Shown here: positions 13,765 through 36,845 of the stretch, piece after piece
Layout of the letters: every line of letters starts with the position of its first letter
Position numbering within the stretch: position 1 is the first letter of the stretch
NCBI RefSeq assembly: GCF_965216085.1
Contig: NZ_OZ244138.1
Span: 5,121,377 to 5,185,376 of the forward strand
DNA from: Roseibium sp.
GTDB lineage: Bacteria > Pseudomonadota > Alphaproteobacteria > Rhizobiales > Stappiaceae
DNA: 64,000 nt
Reading direction: 5' to 3'
Notes under the pieces: generated by a model
The model's database searches: none
What the model saw: only the letters and a program-made list of their open reading frames with translations
What the model was told of the DNA's origin: nothing
Made by a program: the position numbers and the translations under genes

Positions 13765-13803
13765 TCTAGTTTCGATAATGACAAACACAGCACTGTATCA
13801 ATA

Positions 13804-14184: not shown

Positions 14185-14240
14185 GATTTTTGAGGCTTAA
14201 CGGAAATAGCCAGATTCAATATGATATCGAAGGAAGAAAA

Positions 14241-14270
14241 TGGTGGACCTAAGGGGAGAAGAATTGAACC
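14241..14270. repeat. degenerate copy of the 3' end of tRNA-Ala (possible att remnant and left island border)
   Basis: tggtggaCCTAaGGGGAgaagAAtTGAACC compared with the tRNA gene end at 46200: tggtggaGCCTAGGGGAATCGAACC. The blocks TGGTGGA, CCTA, GGGGA and GAACC are shared in the same order and orientation, with 3 small indels. Confidence 0.3.
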
Positions 14271-14342
14271 GCTTCTTCCAGGTTTTGGAAGAATGGGAAT
14301 CCCATCTCGCACAACATGATCTTAATGATCTGAGGTGCGGTG

Positions 14343-14771
14343 ATGAGAAGTATAGATAACGATTACAATAAGATATCCAAAAACAAGAAGACAAAGAAGG
14401 ACCCACCGTTCTCCCTGCGGCTGACGTTTGAAGAGCGCGCAAGGCTTGAAGAGCTGGCAGGCGATGAACCACTCGGTTCATATATCAAGCGAAAAGTGTT
14501 CGACGGAAAAGGTACGGGAACGAAAAGGGCGCGTTCACGCACTAGAAGGCCTATCAAAGACGAGAAAAAGCTGGCCTACGTCCTCGGTATGCTTGGTCAG
14601 TCCCGTCTTGCAAACAATCTCAATCAGCTCGCAAAAGCCTCTCACATGGGCACTCTACCCGTGTTGCCTGACACCGAACGGGATATCCGCCGTGCCTGCG
14701 CGGATATTGCGTTCATGCGGCGCGAATTGATGCGCGCTCTCGGTTATAGAACAGATACGGAGCCGTCATGA
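14343..14771 (+). CDS. mobC: MobC-like relaxosome accessory protein (ribbon-helix-helix)
   Basis: FSLRLTFEERARLEELA is an RHH beta-strand plus helix, and the NNLNQLAKASH motif is typical of MobC-family proteins. The gene overlaps the relaxase start (ATGA). Confidence 0.7.
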   Translation: MRSIDNDYNKISKNKKTKKDPPFSLRLTFEERARLEELAGDEPLGSYIKRKVFDGKGTGTKRARSRTRRPIKDEKKLAYVLGMLGQSRLANNLNQLAKASHMGTLPVLPDTERDIRRACADIAFMRRELMRALGYRTDTEPS

Positions 14772-16180
14772 TTTTAAAGGGCTCCCAGCGCGGTGGCGCA
14801 AAACAGCTTGGTCTTCATCTTCTCAAAACCCAGGAAAATGAACATGTCGAAGTTCACGACATCCGAGGCTTCATGTCTGAAGACATCGTCGGCGCGCTTC
14901 GTGAAGCCGAGGCGATTTCCAAAGGCACCAAATGTCGTCAGTACCTGTTCTCTGTGTCATTGAACCCACCTGAAAGTGAAACGGTACGGATTGAGACCTT
15001 TGAAAAGGCACTTGAGGCGATAGAAGAAATGCACGGGCTCGTTGACCAGCCACGAGTAATCGTCTTCCATGAAAAAGAAGGACGGCGGCATTGTCACGCA
15101 GTCTGGAGTCGGGTTGATGCCGAAACCATGACGGCAAAGCCTCTTCCCTTTTTCAAAAACAAGCTACAGGAAGTCTCAAAACAGCTCTATCTCGAGAACG
15201 GCTGGCAAATGCCACGCGGCTTGGTTGACAAGCAGAACCGTGATCCTCGGAATTTTACCCTCGCTGAATGGCAACAGGCAAAAAGGGTCGGGCGGCATGC
15301 TGGCGAGATAAAAGGGTTGATCCAGGAAGCCTGGGCAATCTCCGACACGCGCCAGACCTTCTCGCACGCGCTGGAGGAGCGGGGTTTTTACCTTGCCCGT
15401 GGCAATCGTCGCGGTCACGTCGCCGTAACCTTCGAAGGTGAAGTGATTGCGATTCCCCGTGCCGTCGGCAAGAAAACAAAAGACGTCAAAGAGCGTCTCG
15501 GCAAATCTGAGGAATTGTGTAGCGTTGAGGAAACCCGACAACGGATCGCCCAAGAAATCCTGCCACGCGTGAAATCACACCTTGATGAGGCTCGGGGCAA
15601 AGCCAGGGTGGAAACTGGCGCTCTGAATGCTCGGCGTTCTTTGATGCTCAATAAGCACGTTGAAGAACGGGCAAGGCTTGATGCGGGTCAGAAACAACGG
15701 TTCGAGGATGAGGCACGCCAACGAGCGGATCGCTTGCGCAAAGGCGTTTTAGGACTGTGGGACAAACTGACGGGCAAACACGCCAAGATCCAAAAGCAAA
15801 ATGAAATAGAAACTATGTGGGCACTCCAACGCGATCGGGAACAACGGCACGCGATCCTTGCGTCCCAGATGCAGGAGAGGCGAGACTTGCAAGCCGAAAT
15901 CAAGGTCACTCGCAGCAAGCATGCACAGGCTCTGCTCGATCTTCATTCTGACACTGCCAATTACCGTTTGATGAAACGCGGTGAAGAGCCAAGGCCGAAA
16001 GCAAAATCCTCCTTCGATCGTTTGGACGACTTGCGCGAAAAAGCCAAGCAGCCAAAGACTCGGCAGACAGCAATCAGACACTCCGAATTTGAACGACAAC
16101 CCAGATCTCCAGGTGAGCGGCTTAAACGAGCGCGTGAGCGCAAGCAGCGGCAAGATCGCGGACCTGAGCTTGAACCATAG
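14768..16180 (+). CDS. relaxase/mobilisation nuclease (MobA/VirD2 superfamily)
   Basis: The N-terminus MILKGSQRGGAKQLGLHLLK...NEHVEV and the histidine-triad region HEKEGRRHCHAVWSRVD match conjugative relaxases. The C-terminal half is a basic coiled coil. Confidence 0.85.
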   Translation: MILKGSQRGGAKQLGLHLLKTQENEHVEVHDIRGFMSEDIVGALREAEAISKGTKCRQYLFSVSLNPPESETVRIETFEKALEAIEEMHGLVDQPRVIVFHEKEGRRHCHAVWSRVDAETMTAKPLPFFKNKLQEVSKQLYLENGWQMPRGLVDKQNRDPRNFTLAEWQQAKRVGRHAGEIKGLIQEAWAISDTRQTFSHALEERGFYLARGNRRGHVAVTFEGEVIAIPRAVGKKTKDVKERLGKSEELCSVEETRQRIAQEILPRVKSHLDEARGKARVETGALNARRSLMLNKHVEERARLDAGQKQRFEDEARQRADRLRKGVLGLWDKLTGKHAKIQKQNEIETMWALQRDREQRHAILASQMQERRDLQAEIKVTRSKHAQALLDLHSDTANYRLMKRGEEPRPKAKSSFDRLDDLREKAKQPKTRQTAIRHSEFERQPRSPGERLKRARERKQRQDRGPELEP

Positions 16181-22762: not shown

Positions 22763-25042
22763 TTAAGTTCGTAGTAAATTTGAGAACAGGCTTATCAAAT
22801 CGTCGTCATCAAACTTTTCGTTGCCTTGCCGCCTCGATGGTGAAAATCCGGTGCTGCGTTCCTCGTGATCGGACTCCTCAATTTCCGATATTCGGTCAAA
22901 CACCACTGATTTCGCCTCTTCAGGATCGCGACCGGTGAGTTTTGCGAGTGAATCCAGATAGTCTAGATGCTCGGTAAGACTGTCTTCGGTATCCAGATGG
23001 GATATGGCTTCTCCAGTGTTTGAAAATTCATACTCTATGGCATTTCCAAGGGCGTGTCCGGCAGGCGTAAAAGGCGTAAGAAATGTATCGGACATATACT
23101 CCTGAACACTCTCAGTAACGCTGACAAGCTCATCGGGCGGAAGTCCGTCTTCAATCACGTTTGTCAAACGTGCTTCAATAGCTTCCAAAAGCGTCTGTTT
23201 TTGTGAAACGTCGTCATCGACAAAATTACTCACCCACCAGTGAAGTTGTGGAAGGTCTCGCCCATCCCGCCACGAATTCAAACGCAATTTACTGGTGGCG
23301 AGCATAGATAAAGCCTTTTCGATATACTGCTCTTCACCGCAAGCTTCCCACCATTGAAGCAGCATTTCCGCCCGATCTGCTAGCGAAAGGTCGTCAGCCG
23401 AATAGCTTGCATATCCGTACCGCATGGATTTTTTCATTGATGGCGTGGCATCAATCATCTGGGAATATGAGCCAAACGCGCTGGCGAATTTCTTTTGGAT
23501 TTCAGGGTGAGACTTAAAAACTTCGCAGACGTGCCGCCATAGGTGTTTTGCCCAATCTGCTCTCCTGGCGGTTGCGGGCAAAAGCTCCAGAAATTCTTTC
23601 TCGATAAGGTACGACTTCAGGAAATCCCGGACGGAGGGATTAACAAAGCTAACAGTTTGGCCGGAAATAGAGACAAAACCGGATTCCAAAGATTTTAATG
23701 CGTCTTCAAAATCCCCTGGCTTTGTCGGCTGTCCATAGTGACCGCAAACAATCCGATGCAGTTTCGAAAAATTTTCACTCAATTCATCGACTTCTTGTCC
23801 ATATTCCGAGCCAAAGAACAGTGCGACCAGAAGGTTTTGCGACTTCATATCCAATGCGCGATATGGCTTACTCCAAACAAGTTCGGGATTTTCAAGGGCA
23901 TGATAGATGTAGCCAGGATAATCCGAAGGCTTCATTACATCGATGCTGTCACTCGACACGGACGCGATAATTCGGGGATTGTAGTTTTTATGGTCCACGA
24001 TCTTTTTCAGCCAATCGCCAACCAACAAAGCCTCAAAATGCTCCTGTTTTAGTTCGGATGCCGATAAGTGATTGAACAAGATTTGCGATCTGATTTTTCT
24101 GGTGTAAGCGCCGACATCTAGAATATATTTGGCGAGCTGTAATTTCTTGTCGTCAACGTGATCTGATAATCTTCTGGCTTCTTCGAAAATATGCGCCCTC
24201 GTGGTGAGGACGAACCGTGAATTCTTCGAACGTCGAATTCTGTTTACGAATGTCGCAAGTGCGGTATCGCGTTGAAGAAGCGATTGGCGGTCTAATTCAA
24301 TCCGCCCCAAAAAATCATCGAAGAAGAATACCGTTGGTTTTCCGTCATCGACCTTGGCAAATCCTTCTTCTAGCGAAGTAATGGCATAGAATTTCCACCC
24401 TTCTTCAAGATATTGATAGGATATCATTTTTGCTAGGGTCGTTTTGCCGACACCAGGAGGCCCTGAAACGATCAGGATTTTCTGGTCTTCGAGTCGTTTT
24501 GTGGCTTCTTCGAAGCTCGGATTTCGGACATACACACGAAGGTCGTCCAGAATCTCTTCTTTCGTTGCCTGCGTGAAAGCCTCAAGACCGGAATTGAGAA
24601 TGCGCTCCAAGACAGCAGTGCTGGATAGCCAGAGCTTGATGTGGGATTTTTCGATTTCCGGATATCGTGTGAGGGCTCCTTCAATATCTTCTCGCCCCCA
24701 GATATCCTCCGGCTGCTGGAGAATGCCGCTGGCGATCTCCGCAAGAGTATTGCTCTTTTTTTGCGTCAGCGACTGTGATGTAAAAAACAGATAACGTTTC
24801 GGCTTGAGATCGGAGACCTTCAGAACTTCCTTTTTGAGAGACGATTTCAGCGCCGTAAAAGTCGAGCCAATGTAATGCTTGCATTGCAGGATGGTCGCGT
24901 CCGCACCCCTTGAATGACGACCGTCTATTCCACCGTCCGGCCCTGGACCGAACGCTGAAAATCTTTTGCCGGTGTCCGCTTTGGCGATGTCGCGGCAAAG
25001 TTCCTCGAAATCGATGTGCGATAAGTTCTCAAGTCTCGACAT
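22763..25042 (-). CDS. Mrr-like restriction-endonuclease domain fused to a STAND-type P-loop NTPase
   Basis: The N-terminus FEELCRDI...GPDGGIDG...ILQCKHY is an Mrr_cat-type PD-(D/E)xK core. Walker A is SGPPGVGKTT (aa 193-202) and Walker B is VFFFDDFLG. A roughly 450-aa helical C-terminal region follows. Confidence 0.75.
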   Translation of the reverse strand: MSRLENLSHIDFEELCRDIAKADTGKRFSAFGPGPDGGIDGRHSRGADATILQCKHYIGSTFTALKSSLKKEVLKVSDLKPKRYLFFTSQSLTQKKSNTLAEIASGILQQPEDIWGREDIEGALTRYPEIEKSHIKLWLSSTAVLERILNSGLEAFTQATKEEILDDLRVYVRNPSFEEATKRLEDQKILIVSGPPGVGKTTLAKMISYQYLEEGWKFYAITSLEEGFAKVDDGKPTVFFFDDFLGRIELDRQSLLQRDTALATFVNRIRRSKNSRFVLTTRAHIFEEARRLSDHVDDKKLQLAKYILDVGAYTRKIRSQILFNHLSASELKQEHFEALLVGDWLKKIVDHKNYNPRIIASVSSDSIDVMKPSDYPGYIYHALENPELVWSKPYRALDMKSQNLLVALFFGSEYGQEVDELSENFSKLHRIVCGHYGQPTKPGDFEDALKSLESGFVSISGQTVSFVNPSVRDFLKSYLIEKEFLELLPATARRADWAKHLWRHVCEVFKSHPEIQKKFASAFGSYSQMIDATPSMKKSMRYGYASYSADDLSLADRAEMLLQWWEACGEEQYIEKALSMLATSKLRLNSWRDGRDLPQLHWWVSNFVDDDVSQKQTLLEAIEARLTNVIEDGLPPDELVSVTESVQEYMSDTFLTPFTPAGHALGNAIEYEFSNTGEAISHLDTEDSLTEHLDYLDSLAKLTGRDPEEAKSVVFDRISEIEESDHEERSTGFSPSRRQGNEKFDDDDLISLFSNLLRT

Positions 25043-25159
25043 GGCTTTTGCGTTAATGATTCCAGGAACATATTAAGGATGCGTCACGTTCGTTCCAAGT
25101 AATTTCGTACTATCAGGAATTGTGAGGTTGTTCCATTCCTCCAATTACAGCGGTTCGGC

Positions 25160-25625
25160 ACATGTGCAGAGTCACATTTCAAAGCCCTGCGAGTGGTTTC
25201 AAGGGGCGCGATAGCCCTTTGATCGGGTTCAGCGTCGATACGCTGACGGCATCCAATCTGCGCAAGGTTGGTCTGGGTTCCAAGGGGCACGAAGGCTCTT
25301 GGTCGATGGGATGGTTCCAAGGAAGGGAGGCGCGAAAGCTCCCTTCTTGGTCAGGATTGCACAAGGGCAGGAACGCCCTTTGCTCTCGATGAAATCGTCT
25401 CCATGAAATGGTCTGGGGTCATGGGGGCAGGAACGCCGCCCAAGTCGATGGGTGCAGGGAGAGTGAAATCTCCCGCGAGTGGCTCAATCCGGCAATACGG
25501 GTTGGATGGCTCTGAAACGGGCTCAATGCCCTGAAAGAGCCAAGGCTAGAGGGTCCACGGGAGAGCGTAGCGTCTCCCTGGCAAGATCAGCGGGGGTACT
25601 ACCCCGCACATCTTGCGGGTGAGAG
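25160..25625 (+). ncRNA. candidate structured RNA or protein-binding hairpin array (unclassified)
   Basis: ORF-poor, GC-richer segment with at least 10 consecutive stem-loops, several closed by GNRA-like or GGA-containing loops. It also has degenerate repeated words. G-T pairs in the stems occur only when read on the plus strand. No known RNA family was recognised. Confidence 0.3.
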
Positions 25626-26193
25626 AATTCAAAATTAGCAGATGCTAGAAATAGGAGTTTTAAATAGCGTGTCCGCTTGCACGTTCACTTCAGACGTTTT
25701 CCGGTTCACGCAACAACTCTGCAAACAAGCTCTGTGGTTGTTGCTTCTCAACACTCCACCCAGCCTTGGCGAACGCGATGAACTATTCCCTGTGTTCCGC
25801 GAGGTACGGGAACCTAGTTCTTGGCATGAAAAACACTCTCAATCACTAACCAAAAAGTGCCCATCAAATCGGGGCCCTTTAGTTTTTGACTTGTTCCAAG
25901 AAACTTGAATTTGCCAATAGTGGTTGGCTTGAGATCTCTTCTCGTCACTTGAAACGTTACGGTAGCTTTGGGACTAGCACCATCGATTGGCTAGATTTCC
26001 GAGTGCTCATTCGTTGAGGCGAAGCAACACAATTATTCAAGTTTGCTACCGTTGGAACAAACAAAGCAAGGAAGTGAAACTGCTAGGTTCAATAGTTGAC
26101 GTAACAGTTTCCTTGCACCACACTACTATCGCGTGTTTTGAGCGGTAGCAATCTACCAGAAGGACTAATTGAGCACGGAAAGCTGGAGGTATC

Positions 26194-27720
26194 ATGTCAG
26201 ACAACCCCAAATCGAATGAAACTGAAATCACCCGCGCGGCGAATGAAGACCTATCAAGGGAAGCGGAGATTGTGACAGGGAACGTCAATGCAGCCCTGGC
26301 TCAAATCAACGAGGACCTGGGGAAAGAGGGGGCGGTCGGTGCGTTGGCCCGCGGCAAAATCTTCGAACTCACAAAGCATAGCGAGTGGGCAGCCAGATCT
26401 TACGAACTTGCTTACAGCCTCGATTCTACGAACCTTGAACCGTTGGCGCGCTTGATTGTCGCTCTCATTCACTGCGGAAAATTTCAAGATGCTCTCAACC
26501 ACTCATACCAGCTTACCGCAAAGGACCCGGCTTTTGCGGTCGTTTCATTGTGCCAGGGAGAACTGTACAGTTCGCATACACTTCTTGCGGAGTCACTGCT
26601 GTTAAACGATATGATCGATGAAGCTCGGGCTTCGTTTAACGAAGCACTGAAAATAAATCCTGAGGATTCCCTATCTGCTGGCAGAATGGCCCAGATTAGC
26701 CTCTCGGATGGGGAGATTGAGTCCGCCATCGAACTCGCAGCCAAAACTGGTGATTCTCCTCGGTTTAAGCAGTTGCGAGCAATGGCAACATTGGCTTCGC
26801 GAAACAGCTCAACCGTACCGTTCCTAAAGATTGAGACGATCCAAGAACTTGCTGGAACTGCTTCATCCGCCGTTGGTAGGCCCTTGTCGGTGGATGGCTC
26901 TCGCGTGAGAGCCACGGTGAATACTGAAACGGATTGGGGTGCATCATCAACTCCCGCTTCAAGTCATGCTTTGCCGCGAGACGTCGCCGAGCACTGGGAC
27001 GCTATTGCAATGGAGGAGCATTCATCAATCGCCTCGTTTGCACGGCTACTCCTCGAATTCATGCACTTCGGTGTACCAGCCAGCCTGGTGGACGAAACAA
27101 TTGCCGCAATGGCCGACGAAACCGACCATGCTCGCGATGCGTTAAAGATTTCCAGCCGCCTAAAAGGAGAAAACACAGGAGCGGGCACTCTTGATGTTTC
27201 CAATGTGTTGACGCGAAAGCCAGCTCTGCGGACGTCTGTTAGGGAAGCGCTCTTTGAAGGCTGCATTAGCGAAACGATTGGGGCTCTCGCCGCTCGAAAG
27301 GCAGCGGAAACATGCAAAGACCCGGAAATAAAGAAGACGATGCAAAAGATTTCAAGCGACGAATTGCGGCATGCGGAAGTAGCTTGGCATTTTATTGAGT
27401 GGGGCCTCGAGCTCGAGCCGACGCTAGTCGATGAGTTGACTCGGTTTTTGGAACTTTCGCTGGACGAATTAACGGAAGCGAGCATGTCGAACTGGCCGGC
27501 CAGCGCTAAAGAACCAACGCCTGACTATGGCGCGCTTAATCGTGAACAAATGGCAGAAGTGTCACGCGAAACCTTTTCTGAGTTCTTTTTACCGCGAATA
27601 AAGAAAATAATCTCCGCTGTTGAGCAAAAGAAACAACACTCACCAAATCTCGCATTAGAGCCGAAAAACAATGCCGCTGAACTTATCTCAATTTCTCCTC
27701 AAACGACACTTATCGATTGA
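26194..27720 (+). CDS. TPR-repeat protein fused to a ferritin-like (diiron, ExxH) domain
   Basis: GGAGG RBS upstream. The N-terminal ~230 aa are TPR-like. The C-terminal half has EEHSSIASFARLLLEF, DETDHA, EGCISET and DELRHAEVAWHF, which are paired E/ExxH ligand motifs as in 'ferritin-like domain-containing' proteins. Confidence 0.7.
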   Translation: MSDNPKSNETEITRAANEDLSREAEIVTGNVNAALAQINEDLGKEGAVGALARGKIFELTKHSEWAARSYELAYSLDSTNLEPLARLIVALIHCGKFQDALNHSYQLTAKDPAFAVVSLCQGELYSSHTLLAESLLLNDMIDEARASFNEALKINPEDSLSAGRMAQISLSDGEIESAIELAAKTGDSPRFKQLRAMATLASRNSSTVPFLKIETIQELAGTASSAVGRPLSVDGSRVRATVNTETDWGASSTPASSHALPRDVAEHWDAIAMEEHSSIASFARLLLEFMHFGVPASLVDETIAAMADETDHARDALKISSRLKGENTGAGTLDVSNVLTRKPALRTSVREALFEGCISETIGALAARKAAETCKDPEIKKTMQKISSDELRHAEVAWHFIEWGLELEPTLVDELTRFLELSLDELTEASMSNWPASAKEPTPDYGALNREQMAEVSRETFSEFFLPRIKKIISAVEQKKQHSPNLALEPKNNAAELISISPQTTLID

Positions 27721-28777
27721 TGCGATAACGGAGGGGCTTTGTGCTGCTTTGGGCTTTGAATATGGTGATATCCTGATTGCTGTTGGATCGCTCGCAGAAG
27801 AACTGGGAAACGAGCGATCCGACTTCGACATCATGCTCGTCACCTCACGCACGAACTTCACATTTACCTATCCAAACGTCATCGTGGCCACAATCGCGGA
27901 CATCACAGTTGATATCGCTGTTGTTCAAAATAGTTGGGCAACGCAGACGATAAACAAAATAAAGAGCTTTGGAGATAACTACACTGACCCTCGAAACGCA
28001 GGTGAATTCTCAAGGCAAGAAATACAGTTCCTTCACCGCGTGTGTAACTGTATGGTACTTGCCGGGCACGATTCCGCGAGCCAGTTGAGGGCTCAAATCG
28101 CCTTCTCCCATCTAATTAGACAGCGGTTCTCAAACGCGTTTCACGAACTCAAGTGCTTGGTGGTTGATCTCGTCGGGTTCGAAGAGGAACGGGATTGGCA
28201 GAGTTGCATAATGGTCGCTCAGTTAATCTTAGATTACTCCATTGAATGCTTACTTGCATCATTTCAGTTAACTAATCCAAGCGCTAAGTGGCGAGCGAGA
28301 CTGCTGGGAAAGATCCCGCAAAACTGGGAAGATCGTTTACCTGGAGCGTTCTCAAAAAGGAGCGCTATCACAGTCTATTATGACCTACTGCGTTCACCCA
28401 CAACCATCGATACAGAGAGTGCACAAATTTATTGTAATAAGATCTGCTCGTTTATGCGGAAAGTTTTAGCTTTAGGCAGTTGGCGCACTTCAAACGATAA
28501 AAATGATACTGATCTTCGTTGGTATCGTGGCGAAACAGGTGCATTAGAAACGTTTCCTGTTCTTGATAGTTCGATTTTCTTTTATTATCAGGAAGAAACC
28601 TTCATCGGCTTCAATCTAAGACACAAAGAGCCGTATCTCCACAAGCTCTCTCCCAAGGACGTCGGCTTATTGTGCTACTATGACGGTGGGACGCACGCCG
28701 TCCGTTCAACACCCGCTGTAGCTGAAATGGCCAAGAAATTGGGGATTTTGCAGCCATTGCGAGACGGTCCATCATGA
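27671..28777 (+). CDS. nucleotidyltransferase-fold (Pol-beta superfamily) protein
   Basis: GSLAEELGNERSDFDIMLV is the GS...D.D minimal NTase motif, followed by a helical C-terminal domain. The start is uncertain. ATG 27671 overlaps the upstream gene by 50 nt, and TTG at about 27749 has a GGAGGGG RBS. Confidence 0.6.
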   Translation: MPLNLSQFLLKRHLSIDAITEGLCAALGFEYGDILIAVGSLAEELGNERSDFDIMLVTSRTNFTFTYPNVIVATIADITVDIAVVQNSWATQTINKIKSFGDNYTDPRNAGEFSRQEIQFLHRVCNCMVLAGHDSASQLRAQIAFSHLIRQRFSNAFHELKCLVVDLVGFEEERDWQSCIMVAQLILDYSIECLLASFQLTNPSAKWRARLLGKIPQNWEDRLPGAFSKRSAITVYYDLLRSPTTIDTESAQIYCNKICSFMRKVLALGSWRTSNDKNDTDLRWYRGETGALETFPVLDSSIFFYYQEETFIGFNLRHKEPYLHKLSPKDVGLLCYYDGGTHAVRSTPAVAEMAKKLGILQPLRDGPS

Positions 28778-28789
28778 GAGTGAGGTGAC

Positions 28790-29752
28790 ATGGATAACGT
28801 AGTGGAGGCATTGCTTATTGAAATTGGGGGAACAAACATACGAGCCAAGCTGCAAGGCAAAGACCTAAAGTCTGAGATGGTTATAGCGAAGACCAATTCT
28901 TTCAAATCCCTTTGGCAAGTGATTAACAGATTCAAAAACTTGTTTCGTCTACCAAATAGTCTCAGTAGCGAAATCAATATCAAAGTGGCTGCAGCCGGCT
29001 GCCTTCATAATGGGCGTTTCCTTTCTGACGACATTAAGTGGTTGAATCGAAGCCACGAGGAGTTAGCGGACGAAACTCAGAAACTTGGTTTTCGCTTGCT
29101 ATTCATAATGAACGATATGATTGCTACTTCTAATGGATGGTTAGCTAGGGAAGTAGCTCGAGTTGGTTGTTCAGAAGTATCATGTCCAATAGGTATCGTA
29201 GGCATTGGTACCGGATTTGGTGTCTCATCAATTCATCGCATTTCAGAAACCCAGTTTCTTATCCTAAGCTCAGAGTTGGGTTTTCTCCCAGTCAGTCCTA
29301 GCAAAACGACTCGCATACGAGACGTAGTTTCTGGACGCGCAATAAATGCGGCATCAGTACTCACTAAATCGAGCATAAATGAGCAAACATGCATTGATGG
29401 CAGCATTACAACCGTCGACGACTATTGGCAGGAAAGAAACACTGATCCCGATTTTTTGGATCATTTTCGTTGGTCGGTACTCGCACCTATACTCAGCCAA
29501 AATCTCCAGAAAATAGTAATTGTGGGCGGTGCTGCGTCGATTCTTCGATCTCAAGGAATAATTTCGCCTGAGGACTTAAAGCAGAACTTCTCAAACCGCA
29601 ACATTGGCAGCATACAACCCATGATTAATGACGTAGACGTTTCCTTTGACAGCTCAGAGGACCTTGCTCTGTTTGGTATGACAGAGAGCATTGGCAGAGT
29701 TTCACAGGACTTCTTAGCTACTAAAAATCACTCGCTAGTAGTTGGCTACTGA
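28790..29752 (+). CDS. glucokinase-family (ASKHA) sugar kinase
   Basis: IEIGGTNIRA matches the Glk block DVGGTNARLA, MNDMIAT matches INDFTAV, and GIGTGFGVS matches GAGTGLGVA. A GAGGTG RBS lies upstream. Confidence 0.7.
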   Translation: MDNVVEALLIEIGGTNIRAKLQGKDLKSEMVIAKTNSFKSLWQVINRFKNLFRLPNSLSSEINIKVAAAGCLHNGRFLSDDIKWLNRSHEELADETQKLGFRLLFIMNDMIATSNGWLAREVARVGCSEVSCPIGIVGIGTGFGVSSIHRISETQFLILSSELGFLPVSPSKTTRIRDVVSGRAINAASVLTKSSINEQTCIDGSITTVDDYWQERNTDPDFLDHFRWSVLAPILSQNLQKIVIVGGAASILRSQGIISPEDLKQNFSNRNIGSIQPMINDVDVSFDSSEDLALFGMTESIGRVSQDFLATKNHSLVVGY

Positions 29753-29758
29753 TACGAG

Positions 29759-31240
29759 ATGGGTAGCGCAGCAGTAATGACTGTAAATGCCGGCGGTTCG
29801 TCGGTTAAAGTCCATCTCTTCGGTCGTGGAAAGCTTCCCGAAGCGAGTGCCTCAATTGCACAGATGGACATTTTGAGTCGAAGAGTAACTATTCGATCTG
29901 GAAGCGAAACAATCCGCGAGGAAACGGTTTATGGCACAGAAAGCTGGTCCTGCCACGATCTCGTTTCCGCAGTATGTTCCATCGTCAATTCTCGCCCGGA
30001 TATTAGGCCAGAAGTTATCGCGCACCGGGTGAAGTTTGCGAGAGAAAGGTCTCCGGTATGCGAATTCGATCGGAGAATCTACAACTCAGTTCTCTTAAAT
30101 TCAAATTTGGCTCGATTGCACAACCCGATCACGCTGGAATTGTACAACATTACGGAGAGGGCTTTTCCAGATGCGACGCAGCTCGCAATCTTGGACAGCG
30201 GTATATTCTTTAATGATGGATTGAGCGATAGTTGCCCCCTCCTACCCCAACGAATAAGAAATAGGTATGAACTGCGTTCAACTGGTCATCATGGACTGGC
30301 ATTGGAAGACGTAATCAACTCACTCGACCCACCGGTCGGGCTAAAATCTATATGCGTCCATATTGGTTCTGGCGCAAGCGTTTCTGGGTTCGTTGGGAAA
30401 GAACCGCAATTCAGCAGTATGGTCCACGCTTCTATCGACGGACCAATAATGAACAGTCGATCCGGATCATACTCAGCTGGCGCCGTGCTTAAAATGATGT
30501 CGAAGGGCGCCTCATTACGCACTGTCTCCGATCTTTTACATTCCCATTCAGGTATTTTCGCGCTTGCGAACCAAGAACTAGAAGACAGAACCATGGTGAA
30601 AGATACAATAGCGGACATCTATGATTCGCCATTTAATGTATATATAGCTTCCTTTATTCGTGAGATTGTATCAGCATATTCAGAATTAAGCGGTTGTGAC
30701 GTTATAGTTTTTTCTGGAGGTGTAGCGCGTTCGGGACCAAAAATCGTAAGGATGATTGTAGACTTTCTGAAACACATGGGACTTCGGGTTCCAAACACCG
30801 ATCCAATTCTTCTTCCCTGCAGACTCGACACCAGAAGTGGATGCGTTATCGCAGTTTGTAAGGAGGCGGAAGAGCGAGTGATAGCTGCCAAAGCCAGAAG
30901 CTTCGTTTTTCAAGAGGAAGCAGATTGGTATGAGTGTGATCTAGTTGTGCCCGGGCTGGCACGCGGTCCACTACTAAACTTGAAGACTACTGACAAAAAG
31001 CAGGTTAATGCGATTATCCTCACGGAAAAGTTGACTACTGCGGCAGCTCTTTCTGCCCAGCGTTTTGGAGGATTGATTGCCTTAACGGGTGACGCTCTTG
31101 GACATGGCGCAGCGATTTGCCGAGAGATTGGCCTACCAACGGTAATTTGCAGTAATGAAAGCGTGTTAGAACACTTAGGAAAAGAAGTGTTTCTTGATGC
31201 GACAGAAGGGAGAATAAGACTGTGCTCTCAAAACGAGTAA
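29759..31240 (+). CDS. acetate/butyrate-kinase-like domain fused to a PEP-utilising-enzyme mobile (phosphohistidine swivel) domain
   Basis: AckA-like blocks are present: VNAGGSSVKV, RLHNPITL, ILDSGIFF, GHHGLA, HIGSGASV and VIVFSGGVARSG. The C-terminal ~100 aa read NAIILTEKLTTAAAL...GGLIALTGDALGHGAAICREIGLPTVI, which matches the swivel-domain pattern around the phospho-His. Confidence 0.75.
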   Translation: MGSAAVMTVNAGGSSVKVHLFGRGKLPEASASIAQMDILSRRVTIRSGSETIREETVYGTESWSCHDLVSAVCSIVNSRPDIRPEVIAHRVKFARERSPVCEFDRRIYNSVLLNSNLARLHNPITLELYNITERAFPDATQLAILDSGIFFNDGLSDSCPLLPQRIRNRYELRSTGHHGLALEDVINSLDPPVGLKSICVHIGSGASVSGFVGKEPQFSSMVHASIDGPIMNSRSGSYSAGAVLKMMSKGASLRTVSDLLHSHSGIFALANQELEDRTMVKDTIADIYDSPFNVYIASFIREIVSAYSELSGCDVIVFSGGVARSGPKIVRMIVDFLKHMGLRVPNTDPILLPCRLDTRSGCVIAVCKEAEERVIAAKARSFVFQEEADWYECDLVVPGLARGPLLNLKTTDKKQVNAIILTEKLTTAAALSAQRFGGLIALTGDALGHGAAICREIGLPTVICSNESVLEHLGKEVFLDATEGRIRLCSQNE

Positions 31241-32091
31241 AAGAGCAAATTCTTTATTGCAACCGTCCGCAATACACTCTTTCAGTTTTGCAATCTGACC
31301 TCACCCGGCGATCATTCGACAACGCAGGCGAACAAATTCTTGGGCGGAAAGCGTTTATTCACACAGATGAAACCGGTCTCGTATGGCTACCCAAAGATCT
31401 TCTCGCCCCACAGCTGGTCGATTTCTTCATTAAGAATCCATCAAAGTTCTACAGTGCTGTCGAGTCCAGGATGATTGAGTATTGCCGGACGAGTGAATTG
31501 GTGCGAGCGGCCGAAATTTCTCGCAATACAAGTGTCACAGCACAAATGAAAGCGCTAAGAGGTCTTGCATACGCATATATTGGTTTGCTCAAGTATGTGA
31601 TTATTGGAAATCTACTGATCGAAGAAGTGATCGGTCGCTTTCAGCAACTATTAGCGGAGTTCGTTCCGAACGAGCTGGCGGTTCAACACCTTGACTCCCT
31701 GTTACGCTGTGACGCGGTAGCAAGAGCTATAGATTTGCAATTTTTTGAAGACATTCGAGGAACAAAGCGTATAGAGGATGTTACCTCTGCTCCAGTTCAT
31801 ATTTTTGGCGATACTCGTATTGTTCACTCTGTTCCTACCGACGACAACGTCAACAGCTTTCTATTGCAAGCTAAAGGCTGTATTTCACGCTACGCACCAC
31901 TTCGATTTATCGTCCCTGTTGTCTACCAGATGGCAGAGGAATGGAGATACGCGGATTATTCTTTAAGAACGCATTTACGCTATTATCTCGATTCGCTTCA
32001 GGCTCAACTTGGAATTCAAAAAAACCTCTACGCCATGACGTTTAGTGAATTAGAGGCGGAGTTCATTACGTATGAATGCAGAGCCAACTAG
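31222..32091 (+). CDS. hypothetical helical protein (possibly related to the linker or substrate region of PEP-synthase/rifampin-phosphotransferase-type enzymes)
   Basis: 289-aa ORF with a GTG start overlapping the upstream gene by 19 nt. Only weak resemblance was noted (the C-terminal ..NLYAMTFSELEAEF is like the D.F.LT..EL block). Confidence 0.45.
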   Translation: MLSKRVKEQILYCNRPQYTLSVLQSDLTRRSFDNAGEQILGRKAFIHTDETGLVWLPKDLLAPQLVDFFIKNPSKFYSAVESRMIEYCRTSELVRAAEISRNTSVTAQMKALRGLAYAYIGLLKYVIIGNLLIEEVIGRFQQLLAEFVPNELAVQHLDSLLRCDAVARAIDLQFFEDIRGTKRIEDVTSAPVHIFGDTRIVHSVPTDDNVNSFLLQAKGCISRYAPLRFIVPVVYQMAEEWRYADYSLRTHLRYYLDSLQAQLGIQKNLYAMTFSELEAEFITYECRAN

Positions 32092-32184
32092 TGGCGCGAG
32101 ATGTGGCCAACCACCAGTTTTTCGGAGTGCTCTGAGCCGGAAGTTTCATCGGAGCGGGTCAGCTCCTTTTAGACAAAACTAGTC

Positions 32185-33429
32185 TTACCAGTTTTCAGCT
32201 CGCAAAACGTGAGGTTCAAGCCAACGATCATTTGTGCTGTTCAAATAATAGTCGAGGTCGATATGGTGCGCCTGTAACATGTTGTGTAAAAACATCGTAG
32301 GTACCGTAACAGGAAATCTACCATATTTTGAATGCATATATGTTGCAATTCCTTTGACCACTTCAGTCTGTGCTTCACTTAGACCGAAGCCGGACGTAGT
32401 GATATTATCGTAGTCTTTTCGGAGATGTCCTTCACGCTGAAGGTGAGCTTCAATGAACGCTTTCTTGTTATTTAAAAGGCTGTCAAACGCACAATCCATT
32501 TCCTCGTAGTATGGAGGGCAGTATCCTTCGAGTATGCCATCTAATCCAACAATGTTTGGAGTCGAGTTTCCGGAATGTTTCATCGAACGAAACCCGAGCC
32601 CATTCTTTCGACCACGCCGACTTCCGCAAAGCACTCCGGCACTGTCAAAACCGGAGAACATCCAACCGCCAAGCCCCATTGCTTGTAAAACCAACATACC
32701 ATTGTGGCAGGCGATTGCCATCTCTGAAGCCGCAAGCGTTAGTGCGTTCCTCTCAATCGCGCTAACTGGCATTGCGCGCTGTAGATCCAACTTAACCTCG
32801 AGGTCGTGTATGTTTGGCAGCCGCTGCTGTGCAATATCGTCGACGACTGTCCCTCCATTCACAACGAGGAGGGCGATCATTTCTAAAACAATTTGCGACA
32901 TGTCACAAACTGGAAGTATCAACAAGCTACCTTCCACGTTTGCATATTTCAAATTGTGCGCTGAAATATACTCGGGCGCTATTCGGAGACGATTGCTCGT
33001 TAACTTGGTTGTAAATCCAGCGAGATCAATATTTGGCCCATTTACTTCTTCCACAGTATCTGGAAGTGGAGCTTCAACTGACCTCGATAGCACGTGTACC
33101 CCGGTGTCGTCGGTGAAGAAGAATGTGGTCGGATACCACCCACCTGCTGAAGGGTAGGTACGACCCATTAAATCTGAAGGTATGTGCTCAGCTTTTAAAG
33201 GATAGTCGGGATTCATTTCAACGAAATGAATCCACGAGGTCGATCCAGCAACGCAAGACAAAACGATTTTTGTCTCAAACGCGGTCAAGGCATCGTCGTT
33301 CGTTCCTCTTTGATCACCAGACCGTCCTGAGTTGGCCTGAATTCCCCGCGAAACTCTACGAGACCTTCGCCCTGATAAAGCGAGCATCAAAGGGTAACTT
33401 AAAAAACTCGAGAACCCTTTCTTCAACAC
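32185..33429 (-). CDS. nitroreductase-superfamily (SagB/ThcOx-like) protein
   Basis: LSGRRSRRV near the N-terminus, YPSAGGWYPTTFFF (the PSAGxxYP motif) and LQAMGLGGW are all typical of the nitroreductase/SagB fold. An AGAGGAG RBS precedes the GTG start. Confidence 0.55.
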   Translation of the reverse strand: MLKKGFSSFLSYPLMLALSGRRSRRVSRGIQANSGRSGDQRGTNDDALTAFETKIVLSCVAGSTSWIHFVEMNPDYPLKAEHIPSDLMGRTYPSAGGWYPTTFFFTDDTGVHVLSRSVEAPLPDTVEEVNGPNIDLAGFTTKLTSNRLRIAPEYISAHNLKYANVEGSLLILPVCDMSQIVLEMIALLVVNGGTVVDDIAQQRLPNIHDLEVKLDLQRAMPVSAIERNALTLAASEMAIACHNGMLVLQAMGLGGWMFSGFDSAGVLCGSRRGRKNGLGFRSMKHSGNSTPNIVGLDGILEGYCPPYYEEMDCAFDSLLNNKKAFIEAHLQREGHLRKDYDNITTSGFGLSEAQTEVVKGIATYMHSKYGRFPVTVPTMFLHNMLQAHHIDLDYYLNSTNDRWLEPHVLRAENW

Positions 33430-33502
33430 TTAGCTCCTCTTTTTGTACAGATCGTTTATGCATTCACTAAGGCAATTTCGCAGACCTCTTTGATCGCCAA
33501 AA

Positions 33503-34636
33503 CTAAACAATGAAAGGGTCTGCTCGCGACTTCGCTAGAAACTCAGTCCGCGACGCGTCGTCAATTCGATCAATCGGTAAAGCAACTCGTTCATCAATCT
33601 CAATACCACTATCTAAAACTGACTTTGTCTTACTCGGACTCATTGAATACCACTTTCTAATTTCTTTAACCCCGAGCCAATGAAGGACGTCTATTGCTAA
33701 ACTGTGTTCTCTGCAATCCGAACAATCTGAAATAGCGCCCGTCCATTCAAAATATCGATCTTCGCTGTCTTTGAGACCAGATGACATGCGTAAGTTGTAT
33801 ACTAAGTACTTTATTACTTCACCGAGAGCCCGCCCCTCGTTTCTGAAATACGCAATGATTCCAATGCCGCCGGACTGAGAAAATTTTATACACTCCTCGA
33901 CAGAAAACAGAAGATAAGGACGACAAGAACAAAAATCGGACCCAAATACGTCCGAAGAAGTGCACTCATCATGAATACGACAAGCAACTCCGCGATCTAT
34001 TTTCGATTTAGATTCAATATTTCCGAAAATATATAGACTAATATTACCAACTGGCGGAAGAAAAACATTAACTTCCGGATTATCTTTGAGCGCGGGGGAA
34101 AATAATGAAAGTTCTTCTCTGAGCTCCTGCACTTCGAGGCCCAACCGGGCTGCCACTCCAGGTAAGTACCAAACCTGCTCAATCGCTATTTTAGTCACCT
34201 TCGCATGACCCGTTTTGCTAAGTATCAATTCGTCTGCACTGAGTAAACCTCGCTCTATCGCTATGCGAACTTCTGGAAACCAAACTACGCCCCGAGTAAT
34301 AGCAATTGTTGGTCTATGGTAATGGTCTGACGGATAGGTTCTTCCAAATTTGTCTATTGACAAATGGCCCCAGGGATCGAAAGACACGATAGTGTTATTG
34401 CGGCACCATTGCGGAAACGGACCAATTTGAACTCGAGGTTCCGTCCCTTGGAAATCTGGACGAAAGCCTAGTTTCTTTGTTTGGCCCCGACGAGCAATTG
34501 TCTGAAAAACCGCATGAGGCCCGCCGTATTGCCCAATTGCGTTGTAATCCGTATTAGGGAACAGTATTATCGGTCCCCTTTCAACTGCTGTGGGCGCGTT
34601 CCAATTAAGTTCACCCGGGGTTCGACCCTGCCTCAA
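33503..34636 (-). CDS. GTP cyclohydrolase II-like enzyme with a ~200-aa N-terminal extension
   Basis: VACRIHDECTSSDVFGSDFCSCRPYL parallels the RibA zinc/GTP block VRVHSECLTGDvFGS.RCDCG.QL. GIGIIAYFRNEGRALGEVIKY parallels GvllYLRQEGRGIGL.NK. The TTG start overlaps the Rieske stop (TTGA). Confidence 0.75.
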   Translation of the reverse strand: MRQGRTPGELNWNAPTAVERGPIILFPNTDYNAIGQYGGPHAVFQTIARRGQTKKLGFRPDFQGTEPRVQIGPFPQWCRNNTIVSFDPWGHLSIDKFGRTYPSDHYHRPTIAITRGVVWFPEVRIAIERGLLSADELILSKTGHAKVTKIAIEQVWYLPGVAARLGLEVQELREELSLFSPALKDNPEVNVFLPPVGNISLYIFGNIESKSKIDRGVACRIHDECTSSDVFGSDFCSCRPYLLFSVEECIKFSQSGGIGIIAYFRNEGRALGEVIKYLVYNLRMSSGLKDSEDRYFEWTGAISDCSDCREHSLAIDVLHWLGVKEIRKWYSMSPSKTKSVLDSGIEIDERVALPIDRIDDASRTEFLAKSRADPFIV

Positions 34637-34932
34637 TTTTCAACCTCATTCGATTGATCCTCAGCTTTGTTATCGCAGATAGGCTGCGGAATTAGACGAA
34701 GCGTCGTCGGACGGGCGATTAATTGTTCAACATGAAAAATCTTATGATGCATAGGGCATTCAATCCTATCACCGGTTAAATACAACCCGTGCTTAAGCGA
34801 CCCCGAACGATGGGGGCAAGCATTTTCAACCAAAAATAAATCTCCGTTATAGCACAAAATCACGTATTCAATATCTCCTTGGACTATCCGCGGTAATGAG
34901 TTTCCTAACCAATTCGACGAGAGGGTATTCAC
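34633..34932 (-). CDS. small Rieske [2Fe-2S] protein (NirD-like size)
   Basis: CPHRSG...(x17)...CPMHH is the Rieske CxH...CxxH motif. GTG 34932 overlaps the upstream stop (GTGA) and is preferred. The longest ORF starts at 34974. Confidence 0.75.
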   Translation of the reverse strand: MNTLSSNWLGNSLPRIVQGDIEYVILCYNGDLFLVENACPHRSGSLKHGLYLTGDRIECPMHHKIFHVEQLIARPTTLRLIPQPICDNKAEDQSNEVEN

Positions 34933-36152
34933 TGTCTCGTTTCCCGTCCTAAAGTGCCCGGAGGAAACTGACAAAAGTCCGACGGATCTCGGAGAGCTCC
35001 AATTCCACCAACTTGCAAACTACAAGCGTTACAAGACTGAATAGTCTGTGCCATCATGCTTGGCGTAAAACAATTTTCACTTGCAGAAATACTTTCATCC
35101 AATCCGTAGCTCACTGCTCCACTATCCGCTAATATATTAAAAACCTTACTCACATTGAGCAACTGATTACCAAACTCTTTAAACGTCTGTTGAGTGGCTG
35201 ATATTCCCGCCATAATGTCTATCTCTGCCTGCCTTCCAAATTTTTCAGCCAGTGGGATTGCCACCTCATCCAAAACCATCGACGAATGATGAATATCGAT
35301 GTGCGCATGTTCTGCGAAGTAAGTCGAATCAACTTCTGGATGGTGTCTCTTCAAATACAAATAATTCTGTTTCGTAGACTTCTGATAGGAACTTTCTGCA
35401 TAAATTAAGAAGCCAAGCTGAAGAAAAAAGTTTCGCGGGTTCTGGAATAAGTGGTGAATAAAATTATGCAATTTAAAGGTGTTAATATCGAATAAATACC
35501 AATAATGATTGTAATTCGTACTCAAGTGGAATCCCTCGAGCGTTGAACGGAAGAGCGAGCTGTGTTTCTTTTCAAAGGAGCCGTACCCGAATTCGTCGAT
35601 TAACACGCGAAAAAGAACTGATTGGGCTGGGCCATAGTCGCCCACAACTCCCAAGGCCGAAGCCGATGCTTCAGCAAGCAGATCGCTTGATGATTGGAGC
35701 AGAAAATTACGATAGTAATCCTTGCGTCTTTCATTATTTTCAAGAAATGTAATGAATTCATTCTCTGCGTTCATATCGAGTTCCGAACTCACATCCGACA
35801 AGAACTCCAAAAAACTCAACCGCTCAACGAGCTCGTAAGCAGTTCCGATTTCAGGTGTTATCAGTTTCTTCTCTATTGATGACTGCAAGTTAGAAAAGCC
35901 GCATCGTTCCCTCAGATCGTGATAGGCGTTAAATTCTTCCATACTTGTTTCCTGCACCTTTGGAAGTAAGACGTAGCGTCCTTGGTAACATCGAAAAAGT
36001 ACTTGATGCAGAACAAGGTGATAAAGCTCTATATTGTCGGATTGCTCTGACGGAATTGAATCAATTCGTAAGTCATATTCAGGCAAAACGGTTTGACCGG
36101 AGTGTCGAGAAATCAGTTTACTGATCGTGTCAATTTCTTTTTTGAACTTCAT
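34929..36152 (-). CDS. haem-oxygenase-like fold 'iron-containing redox enzyme' family protein (HDO-like)
   Basis: 407-aa all-helical protein. The block TYFAEHAHIDIHHSSMVLDE, together with upstream E/H-rich helices, is typical of the PF14518-type / CADD/PqqC-like diiron family. The assignment is by eye only. Confidence 0.55.
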   Translation of the reverse strand: MKFKKEIDTISKLISRHSGQTVLPEYDLRIDSIPSEQSDNIELYHLVLHQVLFRCYQGRYVLLPKVQETSMEEFNAYHDLRERCGFSNLQSSIEKKLITPEIGTAYELVERLSFLEFLSDVSSELDMNAENEFITFLENNERRKDYYRNFLLQSSSDLLAEASASALGVVGDYGPAQSVLFRVLIDEFGYGSFEKKHSSLFRSTLEGFHLSTNYNHYWYLFDINTFKLHNFIHHLFQNPRNFFLQLGFLIYAESSYQKSTKQNYLYLKRHHPEVDSTYFAEHAHIDIHHSSMVLDEVAIPLAEKFGRQAEIDIMAGISATQQTFKEFGNQLLNVSKVFNILADSGAVSYGLDESISASENCFTPSMMAQTIQSCNACSLQVGGIGALRDPSDFCQFPPGTLGRETRQ

Positions 36153-36845
36153 TTAGGATGACCGCTCATAAACAGTAATAGGCACGCCAGAAACCTGGTA
36201 GAGTTCGGTAAGGGTCCACTTAGATACTCCGCAGTCCTCCGAATATACATTCGGGCCAAAATACGTTGGTGCATCAGTGTTTCCGCAGACAACTGGAATA
36301 TGTTTTATTATTACCCTTCTCAATAGTTTAGAAGAGAATACTGTGTTCAAAACTCTGGATCCTCCCTCAACAAGAATCTTGAAAACATCGAATCTCCGTA
36401 ATTGCTCAGCTAACTCGCCAAAATTGACTGTATCGCCTCCGGCAACAAGGACTGTAACCGCCGGGTTCGATTGAAGAACTTCGATCTGGTTCGCTGATGC
36501 TTTCCGAGAAGTTGCAACTATTGTCGGAAGTCCGTCGGTCAGGACATTGCACTGTCTCGGCAAATTGCCGTCAGAAGATAGGATTACTCTAACTGGGCTC
36601 TTGCCCTCAAAGTGACGGGTGGTCAGAAGCGGGTTATCAGACCTTATCGTTCCAGCGCCAACCAAGATTGCATCATGTTCCGCTCTCACTTTGTGGAACC
36701 AAGACTTTAGATCCGATCCATAGAATTCGAAGAGCTGTTTGCTGTTGAACCCTGGACCGAGCGATATACGTCCATCAATGGTCAACTCGGTCAGTGTTGT
36801 CACTTCTGTTGAACGCATTTCTTTTTTCAATCGAACTCGACGCAT
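36153..36845 (-). CDS. RibD C-terminal-domain (DHFR-like) pyrimidine reductase family protein
   Basis: ELTIDGRISLGPG, DAILVGAGTIRSDNPLLT and ILVEGGSRVLNTVFSSKLL match the RibD_C reductase pattern. Its stop abuts the next start (TAAATG). Confidence 0.7.
   Translation of the reverse strand: MRRVRLKKEMRSTEVTTLTELTIDGRISLGPGFNSKQLFEFYGSDLKSWFHKVRAEHDAILVGAGTIRSDNPLLTTRHFEGKSPVRVILSSDGNLPRQCNVLTDGLPTIVATSRKASANQIEVLQSNPAVTVLVAGGDTVNFGELAEQLRRFDVFKILVEGGSRVLNTVFSSKLLRRVIIKHIPVVCGNTDAPTYFGPNVYSEDCGVSKWTLTELYQVSGVPITVYERSS

Follow-up and report, generated by a model that had tools for sequence, protein, structure and literature searches.

We analyzed a 64,000-nucleotide (nt) stretch of the Roseibium sp. 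genome (contig NZ_OZ244138.1, positions 5,121,377 to 5,185,376; hereafter the window, with position 1 as its first letter), in which a hairpin-dense noncoding segment occupies positions 25155 to 25631. As read from the sequence, this segment is part of a ∼32-kb integrative mobilizable island that runs from ∼14 kb to a tRNA-Ala gene at 46.2 kb, and it is very probably the island's origin of transfer (oriT), the site where DNA is nicked for conjugation. To its left lie minus-strand cargo genes for an SMC-like ATPase and an Mrr+nSTAND3 protein; right-hand cargo starts directly after its nic region. The proteins expected to act on this oriT are encoded on the same island, by mobC (14340 to 14771, plus strand) and the adjoining gene for a MobA/VirD2-type relaxase (14768 to 16180, plus strand; Pfam PF03432).

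The segment contains at least 15 stem-loops, all described here on the plus strand. Its 5′ part is an array of hairpin modules, whose left edge is formed by a degenerate first module (25155 to 25196), a homologue of GGTTCGGTGCAGGTGGAGAGGCAnnTCTCCAAGCCCTGCGAGTGG in relatives, with a hairpin that is largely lost in the window. Then follow hairpins M1 (25199 to 25222; GCGATA loop), M2 (25229 to 25246; CGAT loop), M3 (25253 to 25271; CCAATC ... GGTTGG), and M4 (25280 to 25302; CCAAGGGGC-ACGAAG-GCTCTTGG), the long hairpin M5 (25317 to 25350) with a GCGCGAAAGC tip, M6 (25359 to 25383), two mini-hairpins with GAA triloops (25387 to 25397 and 25401 to 25411; CGAT-GAA-ATCG and CCAT-GAA-ATGG), and M8 (25418 to 25446). 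M6 and M8 both have an AGGAAC loop (25369 to 25374 and 25429 to 25434). The 3′ part is a conserved 173-position core (25445 to 25618), to which covariance model R1 assigns 151 bits (E = 1.7e-40). It comprises an enclosing helix (25449 to 25451 paired with 25540 to 25542), the module A hairpin (25453 to 25477, with its stem-loop at 25457 to 25474), helix P3 (25484 to 25505), the nested helix P4 (25508 to 25541), helix P5 (25555 to 25581, stem-loop at 25559 to 25578), which is a GGGTCCAC-hairpin-CTGGCAAGAT element, and helix P6 (25582 to 25615). The last of these has an outer stem, CAAGAT/ATCTTG (25582 to 25587 paired with 25610 to 25615), around an inverted repeat at 25590 to 25607. Conservation among relatives stops at ∼25631, ∼15 nt past this last hairpin. 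The core model also gives a faint echo at 25190 to 25349 (17.6 bits), and a CS-6-like TAGCGT is present in the P5 loop of the window only, where the family consensus is GCGCAGCG.

An earlier note on this DNA, made without database searches, had listed ten stem-loops and three repeated words. Upon reading positions 24700 to 26100, we found all ten hairpins where the note had put them, and likewise the words (GGTTCCAAGG at 25276 and 25313, GTCGATGGG at 25302 and 25444, and GGGCAGGAACGCC at 25365 and 25425); M3, the two mini-hairpins, P3, and the outer stem of P6 are additions. The note had also described the segment as GC rich and devoid of a credible gene. Its G+C content is indeed 0.58 to 0.59, compared with 0.44 to 0.50 in the flanks, its GC skew is +0.16 to +0.20, and the overlapping open reading frames (ORFs) are all 61 to 88 amino acids (aa) long; the 88-aa ORF downstream of the segment has no Pfam match and is not conserved in relatives. 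A decayed protein gene is ruled out by the short ORFs, by indels of 1 to 2 nt (not multiples of three) among homologues, and by paired substitutions. Tandem Repeats Finder found no near-identical tandem repeats in the segment; its single report was a 14-nt unit in 2.2 copies, corresponding to the mini-hairpins. No known RNA family had been recognized in the note, and a search of Rfam 15 at gathering thresholds agrees with it, the best matches being fragmentary, with E values of 0.57 to 9.5. Folded as RNA, the plus strand reaches −212 kcal/mol (z = −4.3 versus shuffled sequence) and the minus strand −177 kcal/mol (z = −4.0). With DNA parameters, the values of −98.9 (z = −3.9) and −89.4 kcal/mol (z = −4.8), respectively, do not discriminate between the strands.

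The last ∼90 nt link the segment to plasmid transfer. Weak blastn matches of the window to plasmid pTF4.1 of Acidithiobacillus ferrooxidans and to a Staphylococcus warneri plasmid cover the same hairpin, and each is located shortly upstream of a mobC-relaxase operon; positions 25540 to 25622 and the pTF4.1 sequence are colinear, hairpin for hairpin. A typical member of the family also matches small plasmids of Desulfosarcina, Nitrosospira, and Methylomagnum, 40 to 75 nt upstream of mobC and pointing away from it. A covariance model built from island copies only recovers five plasmid sites on the expected strand (42.6, 39.3, 36.6, 21.2, and 21.2 bits), and it scores the nic region of Frigidibacter mobilis plasmid pcai42B at 58.8 bits. 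Thus, six plasmids match the end of the segment on the expected strand, and five of the six sites are 40 to 400 nt upstream of mobC; the plasmid records carry no oriT annotation in these regions. An intergenic region next to mobC, with an inverted repeat and a conserved motif, is the classical position and shape of oriT in MOBQ and MOBP plasmids, such as RSF1010 and RP4.

When islands and plasmids from four bacterial classes are aligned, they share the order GGGGATGCAAC-hairpin-CCCTTGCCAAGAT-inverted repeat-CACATCTTGC. In the window, this nic region spans 25551 to 25631 and is colinear with the plasmid sequences upstream of mobC; the nearly invariant CACATCTTGC (25607 to 25616), where the nick is expected, directly follows the inverted repeat, whose stem covaries while the motif does not. 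The closest relaxase to the one in the window is that of pTF4.1 (37% identity in 248 aa, E = 1e-44), and the GGTCCAC/CTGGCAAGA variant of the nic region is common to both. A published table lists pTF1 among the plasmids with a known MOBQ oriT (PMC7755788). On pcai42B, a 19-kb mobilizable plasmid of an alphaproteobacterium, leftward relaxase and mobC genes are followed by ∼370 nt of similar hairpin array and then by the nic region; here, in a bona fide mobilizable plasmid, the array is therefore part of the oriT region. Homology shows that our segment ends, in its last ∼90 nt, with the nic region of a relaxase system of the MobC/MobA type, which adds a new member to a known family of oriT.

To delimit the family, we gathered ∼190 related loci that share the 173-nt 3′ core, almost all of them from Alphaproteobacteria and marine metagenomes. 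In a distant blastn search against plasmids, a Tritonibacter mobilis megaplasmid proved to carry a colinear region of ∼470 nt, and a plasmid from Bradyrhizobium carried part of one. In a wider search, a 20-base pattern taken from the most conserved module matched 88 stretches in one-genome-per-species contigs, almost all alphaproteobacterial (Rhodobacterales, Hyphomicrobiales, Sneathiella, Parvularculaceae, Rhodospirillaceae, and Caulobacteraceae), and 108 stretches in metagenomes, many of them marine. The absence of the pattern from 2.9 million viral contigs and of any blastn match in a phage collection rules out a phage origin. Among relatives, the 5′ part is a mosaic of related hairpin modules that vary in order and in number, from 0 to ∼10, with an array length from none (in two loci) to ∼370 nt. 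Its placement is constant: in the ∼190 loci and in pcai42B alike, the array precedes the nic region on its 5′ side, on the same strand. Distant genera share nearly identical copies, which suggests a mobile element.

Covariation among relatives, which the earlier note had named as a check on its hairpins, strongly supports a conserved secondary structure. In an alignment of 64 distinct cores, 46 consensus pairs form nine helices, and 23 of these pairs have changed on both sides. The fixed structure is paired in 97.4% of cells, compared with 88.6% in column shuffles and 35 to 51% with slid partners, and none of 500 shuffles reached any of the observed covariation measures. The eight 5′ modules of the window behave likewise, being 83 to 100% paired among their homologues, with compensatory changes at 10 pairs. 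Evidence is spread over the array: M1 has 24 distinct homologues and seven pairs that are 83 to 96% paired, with 34 G-U versus 2 A-C pairs; three of the seven pairs of M2 show compensatory changes; M3, with 68 distinct homologues, has six pairs that are 93 to 100% paired, one of them compensatory; M4 has seven pairs, one compensatory, and 18 G-U versus 1 A-C; the pairs of M5 are 91 to 100% paired in 32 homologues; M6 has nine pairs, one compensatory; the mini-hairpins have eight, three of them compensatory, and 31 G-U versus 0 A-C; and the nine pairs of M8 are 91 to 100% paired.

The wobble pairs tell the strands apart. The core has 114 G-U versus 16 A-C pairs (50 versus 16 without the single invariant U-G), and the 5′ modules have 113 versus 12; overall, the ratio is about 8:1, compared with about 1.3:1 predicted from base composition alone. 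This excess implies that only the plus strand folds, and the earlier remark that G-T pairs arise on the plus strand only can be extended from one sequence to its homologues. The strand that folds is also the one on which the nick motif comes after the inverted repeat. The loops lean toward DNA. The note had pointed to GNRA-capped helices, but closed GNRA tetraloops are depleted relative to shuffles (174 versus 242 ± 15), and GNA triloops on the plus strand are enriched instead, whether closed by C:G (347 versus 150 ± 13) or by T:A (192 versus 70 ± 7). Minihairpins of the d(C-GNA-G) type are exceptionally stable in DNA, as reportedly found by Hirao in 1994 and Yoshizawa in 1997.

What would such a structure do at an oriT? 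In RP4-type systems, the inverted repeat is on the 5′ side of the nick, and the nicked strand departs 5′ to 3′, heading away from the relaxase genes; in the Gram-negative plasmids matched here, the present element points away from mobC-relaxase. Together, the plasmid polarity and the RP4-type rule imply that the plus strand is nicked and transferred, with the nick within CACATCTTGC. Alignments of this motif with ColE1-type and RP4-type motifs put the nick at positions 4 nt apart, and the exact bond is not readable from them. We propose that the island relaxase, helped by MobC, would nick the plus strand within CACATCTTGC and that this strand would leave 5′ to 3′ rightward, so that the ∼400 nt left of the nick would be unwound and transferred last. 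The array would then be the trailing end of the transferred strand, which matches a structure selected on that strand only, and its hairpins could form once this end is single stranded. For termination, relaxases rely on the proximal inverted repeat as a single strand, and the array might present the inverted repeat and the nick site to the relaxase for termination and recircularization. It might also start complementary-strand synthesis: rolling-circle plasmids have their single-strand origin immediately before the nick, where it is the last part to be exposed and functions in a single orientation. The transferred strand must become duplex DNA in the recipient, and lagging-strand synthesis needs a start (PMC5714925). 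An oriT with an array that acts as single-stranded DNA in termination, in priming of the complementary strand, or in both is, in our view, the best explanation, with a probability of roughly 0.6.

The earlier note had favored a large structured RNA, and a plus-strand structured noncoding RNA of ∼200 to 550 nt that is encoded next to oriT, runs on through it, and serves as a mobilization cofactor or regulator, for example as a multivalent protein-binding scaffold, would account for the strong one-strand covariation, for the abundant G-U pairs, for an RNA fold whose stability on the plus strand exceeds that on the minus strand by 35 kcal/mol, and for a variable number of modules, as in protein-sponge RNAs. 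The homology of the nic region would then be a mere overlap of the RNA's 3′ end with oriT. We consider this unlikely, given the oriT-position homology of the 3′ ∼90 nt and the dearth of transcription signals. Consensus-based scans, which other promoter types could escape, predicted neither a promoter nor a terminator for the segment in the window, detected sigma-70-like promoters on the plus strand to the left of the array in no more than 2 of 64 relatives, and found no intrinsic terminator after the element. At its left edge, the promoter-like conservation is directed to the left and away from the array, and in the Gram-negative plasmids matched here, the sole adjacent operon, mobC, is on the other strand. 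Metagenome contigs offered no usable clue to transcript-like boundaries. The loop preferences and the lack of an Rfam match also speak against an RNA. Its more specific forms in the note fare no better: GGA, the hallmark of a CsrB/RsmZ-type sponge, is found in only 2 of ∼15 loops (the two AGGAAC loops, the others being GCGATA, CGAT, ACGAAG, GAA, GTGAAA, TCAAT, and similar) and no csrA gene is adjacent, while a type III antitoxin is contradicted by the lack of near-identical tandem repeats and of a toxin ORF. The note had offered a DNA-level array of sites as its other option, "oriT-like" or iterons. The former is favored by the plasmid homology; the latter gives way to single-strand structures on the nicked strand. 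Palindromic operators for MobC, a ribbon-helix-helix protein, or another regulator, or iterons, with the hairpins as mere palindromes, would be in keeping with the accessory-protein-bound repeats that oriT regions commonly carry, with short GTAnTAC palindromes in the terminal loop and one or two times just downstream, with DnaA-box-like TTATCCACA left of the array in many relatives, and with a small ribbon-helix-helix protein encoded next to the array in several. Yet protein sites should lose symmetry equally on either strand, and G-T exceeds A-C ∼8:1; compensatory stem changes with conserved loops are the signature of intramolecular pairing; and stem sequences differ between modules, with no single recognition sequence recurring. 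Double-stranded sites therefore have a slim chance of being the explanation.

Several points weigh against an oriT with a single-stranded array. The oriT assignment, including the nicking, is built on position and homology, and the role of the array in termination or priming is a proposal. The mapping of oriT in pTF1-type plasmids, reportedly by Drolet et al. in 1990, is supported here by one table entry (PMC7755788). Frequent G-U pairs, one of them invariant, are equally typical of RNA and of single-stranded DNA, and the loop statistics, which compare related sequences with mononucleotide shuffles, are descriptive only. An RNA has a precedent in SGI1, the mobilization of which requires the oriT-adjacent sgm-sRNA (PMC9299015). 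The palindromic terminal stem puts CATCTTG after the inverted repeat on the minus strand too, so that the nicked strand follows from plasmid polarity and is not read directly. Finally, on the islands, mobC-relaxase is 4 to 10 kb left of the element in the same orientation, neither adjacent nor divergent, and a second inverted repeat, followed by CATCTCGCA, is found upstream of mobC (∼14262 to 14312), both in the window and in relative L005. This repeat could be a working oriT, an operator, or a second nick or termination site. If it were the working oriT, the element at 25.2 to 25.6 kb would be a relic or a border-like nick or termination site; in favor are the conservation of the inverted repeat and the following GGGAAnnnCATCTCGCA between the window and L005, ∼30 to 110 nt upstream of mobC, and the decay of the window's island, which has a recombinase pseudogene and an IS3 insertion. 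We regard this as very improbable, since the motif is absent from relative L077 and shows no similarity to plasmid oriT regions, whereas the 25.6-kb element is conserved in ∼190 loci and matches the plasmid oriT position, and strong purifying selection on its structure argues against a relic. The mobC-upstream repeat itself reads CTTCTTCCA-ggtt-TTGGAAGAA followed by GGGAAtcCCATCTCGCAC (GGGAAcgTCATCTCGCA in L005; not conserved in L077), with a tail that resembles the CACATCTTGC of the oriT. An RSF1010-type nick motif, TGCGCCCT, was also considered and rejected, being neither enriched nor present near mobC.

The transfer genes of the island, placed by Pfam and tblastn, continue on the right. A type IV coupling protein (39567 to 41495) is followed by an AAA ATPase (41514 to 42506), a DUF3768 protein (43139 to 43684), and a large serine recombinase (44663 to 46222), all on the plus strand, and the tRNA-Ala gene (46200 to 46275) is on the minus strand. 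Two in-frame stop codons make the recombinase a pseudogene, and the island in the window is therefore probably unable to excise. The stops fall after ...TTAPA and ...PRGHL, the remainder is 43% identical over 513 aa to intact relatives, and the last codons overlap the complement of the tRNA-Ala gene. Between the oriT and the coupling protein, the right-hand cargo (26194 to 37000) is an unusual cluster that encodes TPR/rubrerythrin-like and glucokinase-like proteins, GTP cyclohydrolase II, an acetate-kinase-like protein fused to a PEP-utilizer mobile domain, a haem-oxygenase-like iron enzyme, a RibD C-terminal domain protein, and several ORFs without a Pfam family. An IS3 element with its ALIL pseudoknot (37820 to 37936) follows the cargo. 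At the other end of the island, a very A+T-rich stretch of ∼430 nt (13765 to 14200), between a ricin-type lectin ORF and mobC, is probably the left island junction. We found no direct repeats of ≥12 nt marking the left end and the tRNA-Ala end, as expected for a serine recombinase. Because the island joins the chromosome at tRNA-Ala, ∼20 kb away, the element was also rejected as an attachment site of this recombinase, an idea raised by one break and three insertions in the terminal loop among relatives.

A similar arrangement is seen around the relatives. Among the 16 with at least 6 kb of right flank, 15 have the coupling protein, a small protein, and the recombinase to the right on the plus strand. 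In four relatives, L005 and L077 among them, the mobC-relaxase pair is 4 to 6 kb to the left, also on the plus strand. Directly left of the element, the minus strand carries genes for restriction-modification and other defence functions that change from one locus to the next. The element is thus a conserved stretch between two cargo hotspots. In at least nine relatives, a control region separates the array from the left-hand cargo. On the plus strand, it reads TAGCAGG-N13-TGCAYC-N23-T(T/A)ATCCACAG, and on the minus strand, CTGTGGATAA-N23-GATGCA-N13-CCTGCTAnnnT-N-GAAAAG, the latter including an extended −10 (TGCTAnnnT) as well as a −35-like box. Inspection by eye shows the same spacing in about a dozen relatives, and a strict pattern finds it in 9 of 88 loci; the extended −10 (TGnTAnnnT) is present on the minus strand of 14 of 64 loci and on the plus strand of none. 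The TTATCCACA part of the region is a perfect DnaA-box consensus and sometimes occurs twice. We infer that the control region is a leftward promoter for the left-hand defence genes. The window has a degenerate copy of the region, a diverged promoter-like sequence on the minus strand (25046 to 25125) that separates the array from the first cargo gene, which encodes the Mrr+nSTAND3 protein and has its start codon at 25042. The possibility that the array is a long leader of this gene, in a minus-strand RNA, was dismissed, as the structure is plus-strand specific and the promoter-like region separates the array from the gene.

Ten loci share a nearly identical element and left flank, in hosts that include Sneathiella, Dinoroseobacter, Parasphingorhabdus, Parvularculaceae, and Thalassospira, which indicates recent transfer between families; the shared flank encodes a helicase, a methyltransferase-like protein of ∼920 aa, and a small ribbon-helix-helix protein whose gene has an inverted-repeat operator, and similarity stops ∼40 nt past the nic region. 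Three sets of metagenomic loci (seven loci) have two tandem matches to the core model (e.g., 66 + 66 and 172 + 51 bits), which suggests that duplication of core segments lengthens the array. Rearrangements have a hotspot in the terminal hairpin: L075 breaks inside the GTACTAC loop, L061 breaks earlier, and three further loci have insertions of 30 to 45 nt between the left arm and the loop of this hairpin. In at least five relatives, one or two extra TTGTAnTACAA palindromes, which match the tip of the terminal hairpin (GTACTAC, GTAGTAC, or GTATTAC), lie 20 to 80 nt right of the nic region. These downstream copies are absent from the window and look like a repeated candidate protein-binding site in the DNA that would be transferred first.

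Origins of transfer are poorly catalogued, and most genomic islands have no recognized oriT, which limits the prediction of conjugative movement. The present sequence-and-structure model picks out oriT regions in ∼190 loci from Alphaproteobacteria and marine metagenomes, as well as in plasmids from four other classes. The element, placed between two hotspots with restriction-modification and defence genes, is also a landmark for defence cargo on mobilizable islands. The hairpin array, exceptionally long and unusual for an oriT, has been found in alphaproteobacterial islands and in one plasmid, and we found no description of a long modular covarying hairpin array on the nicked strand in the literature searched. 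If the array primes the complementary strand or aids termination, it would explain how relaxase-only islands become established in new hosts. More tentatively, the array may be a distinct module fused to oriT, either an expandable single-strand origin or a transcribed RNA scaffold for relaxosome assembly, the latter as proposed for the SGI1 sgm-sRNA (PMC9299015). As a single-strand origin, it would allow helper-dependent islands that lack a primase to make the transferred strand double stranded in many hosts; with either kind of module, marine Alphaproteobacteria would have a widespread cis element of conjugative transfer that had not been described before.

Known systems resemble the element in part. 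Serial hairpins in variable number are shared with CsrB/RsmZ sponges and type III antitoxins, but the modules here are heterogeneous, and no promoter or terminator is evident. Like the sgm-sRNA of SGI1, the segment is an oriT-adjacent noncoding element of an integrative mobilizable island. The sgm-sRNA is encoded between mpsA and the SGI1 oriT, is needed for mobilization, and has a primary transcript that includes the oriT repeats (PMC9299015). SGI1 differs in using the tyrosine-recombinase-like MpsA/B and no MobA-type relaxase, there is no sequence or structural similarity between the two elements, and the promoter and terminator scans of the window gave no sign that ours is transcribed. With the single-strand origins (sso) ssoA, ssoU, and ssoT, the sso1 of ICEBs1, and the ssi of phages and plasmids, the array has in common a hairpin-rich noncoding segment whose structure matters on one strand. 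Like single-strand origins, it is placed just 5′ of the nick on the displaced strand and would thus be the last part exposed. The known types have no sequence similarity to the array, for which priming is a proposal, and a typical one is a single long imperfect palindrome, whereas the arrays here have 5 to 15 short hairpins.

The nic region has its counterpart in the pTF1/pTF4.1-type oriT (MOBQ/MOBP, A. ferrooxidans), which has the same bulged hairpin flanked by GATGCAAC/GGTCCAC and CTTGCCAAGAT, the same inverted repeat followed by CA(T)(GG)CTTGC, a strand polarity that agrees with respect to the inverted repeat, and a relaxase of the same family. In plasmids from outside the Alphaproteobacteria, mobC and the nic region are separated by a single hairpin or by none; here, unlike in those plasmids, an extra conserved core of ∼100 nt and up to ∼370 nt of hairpin modules precede the nic region. 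The islands further differ from plasmids in that the mobC-relaxase operon is displaced, with cargo genes next to oriT instead. In the oriT region of pcai42B, similar modules (GCGATAG, ACGAAGG, and GCGAAAG loops and CCAAGG/CCTTGG stems) are found directly upstream of the nic region, as in the islands; module order and nic motif (CATGGCTTGC) differ, and the whole occupies the classical place, directly upstream of and divergent from mobC-relaxase.

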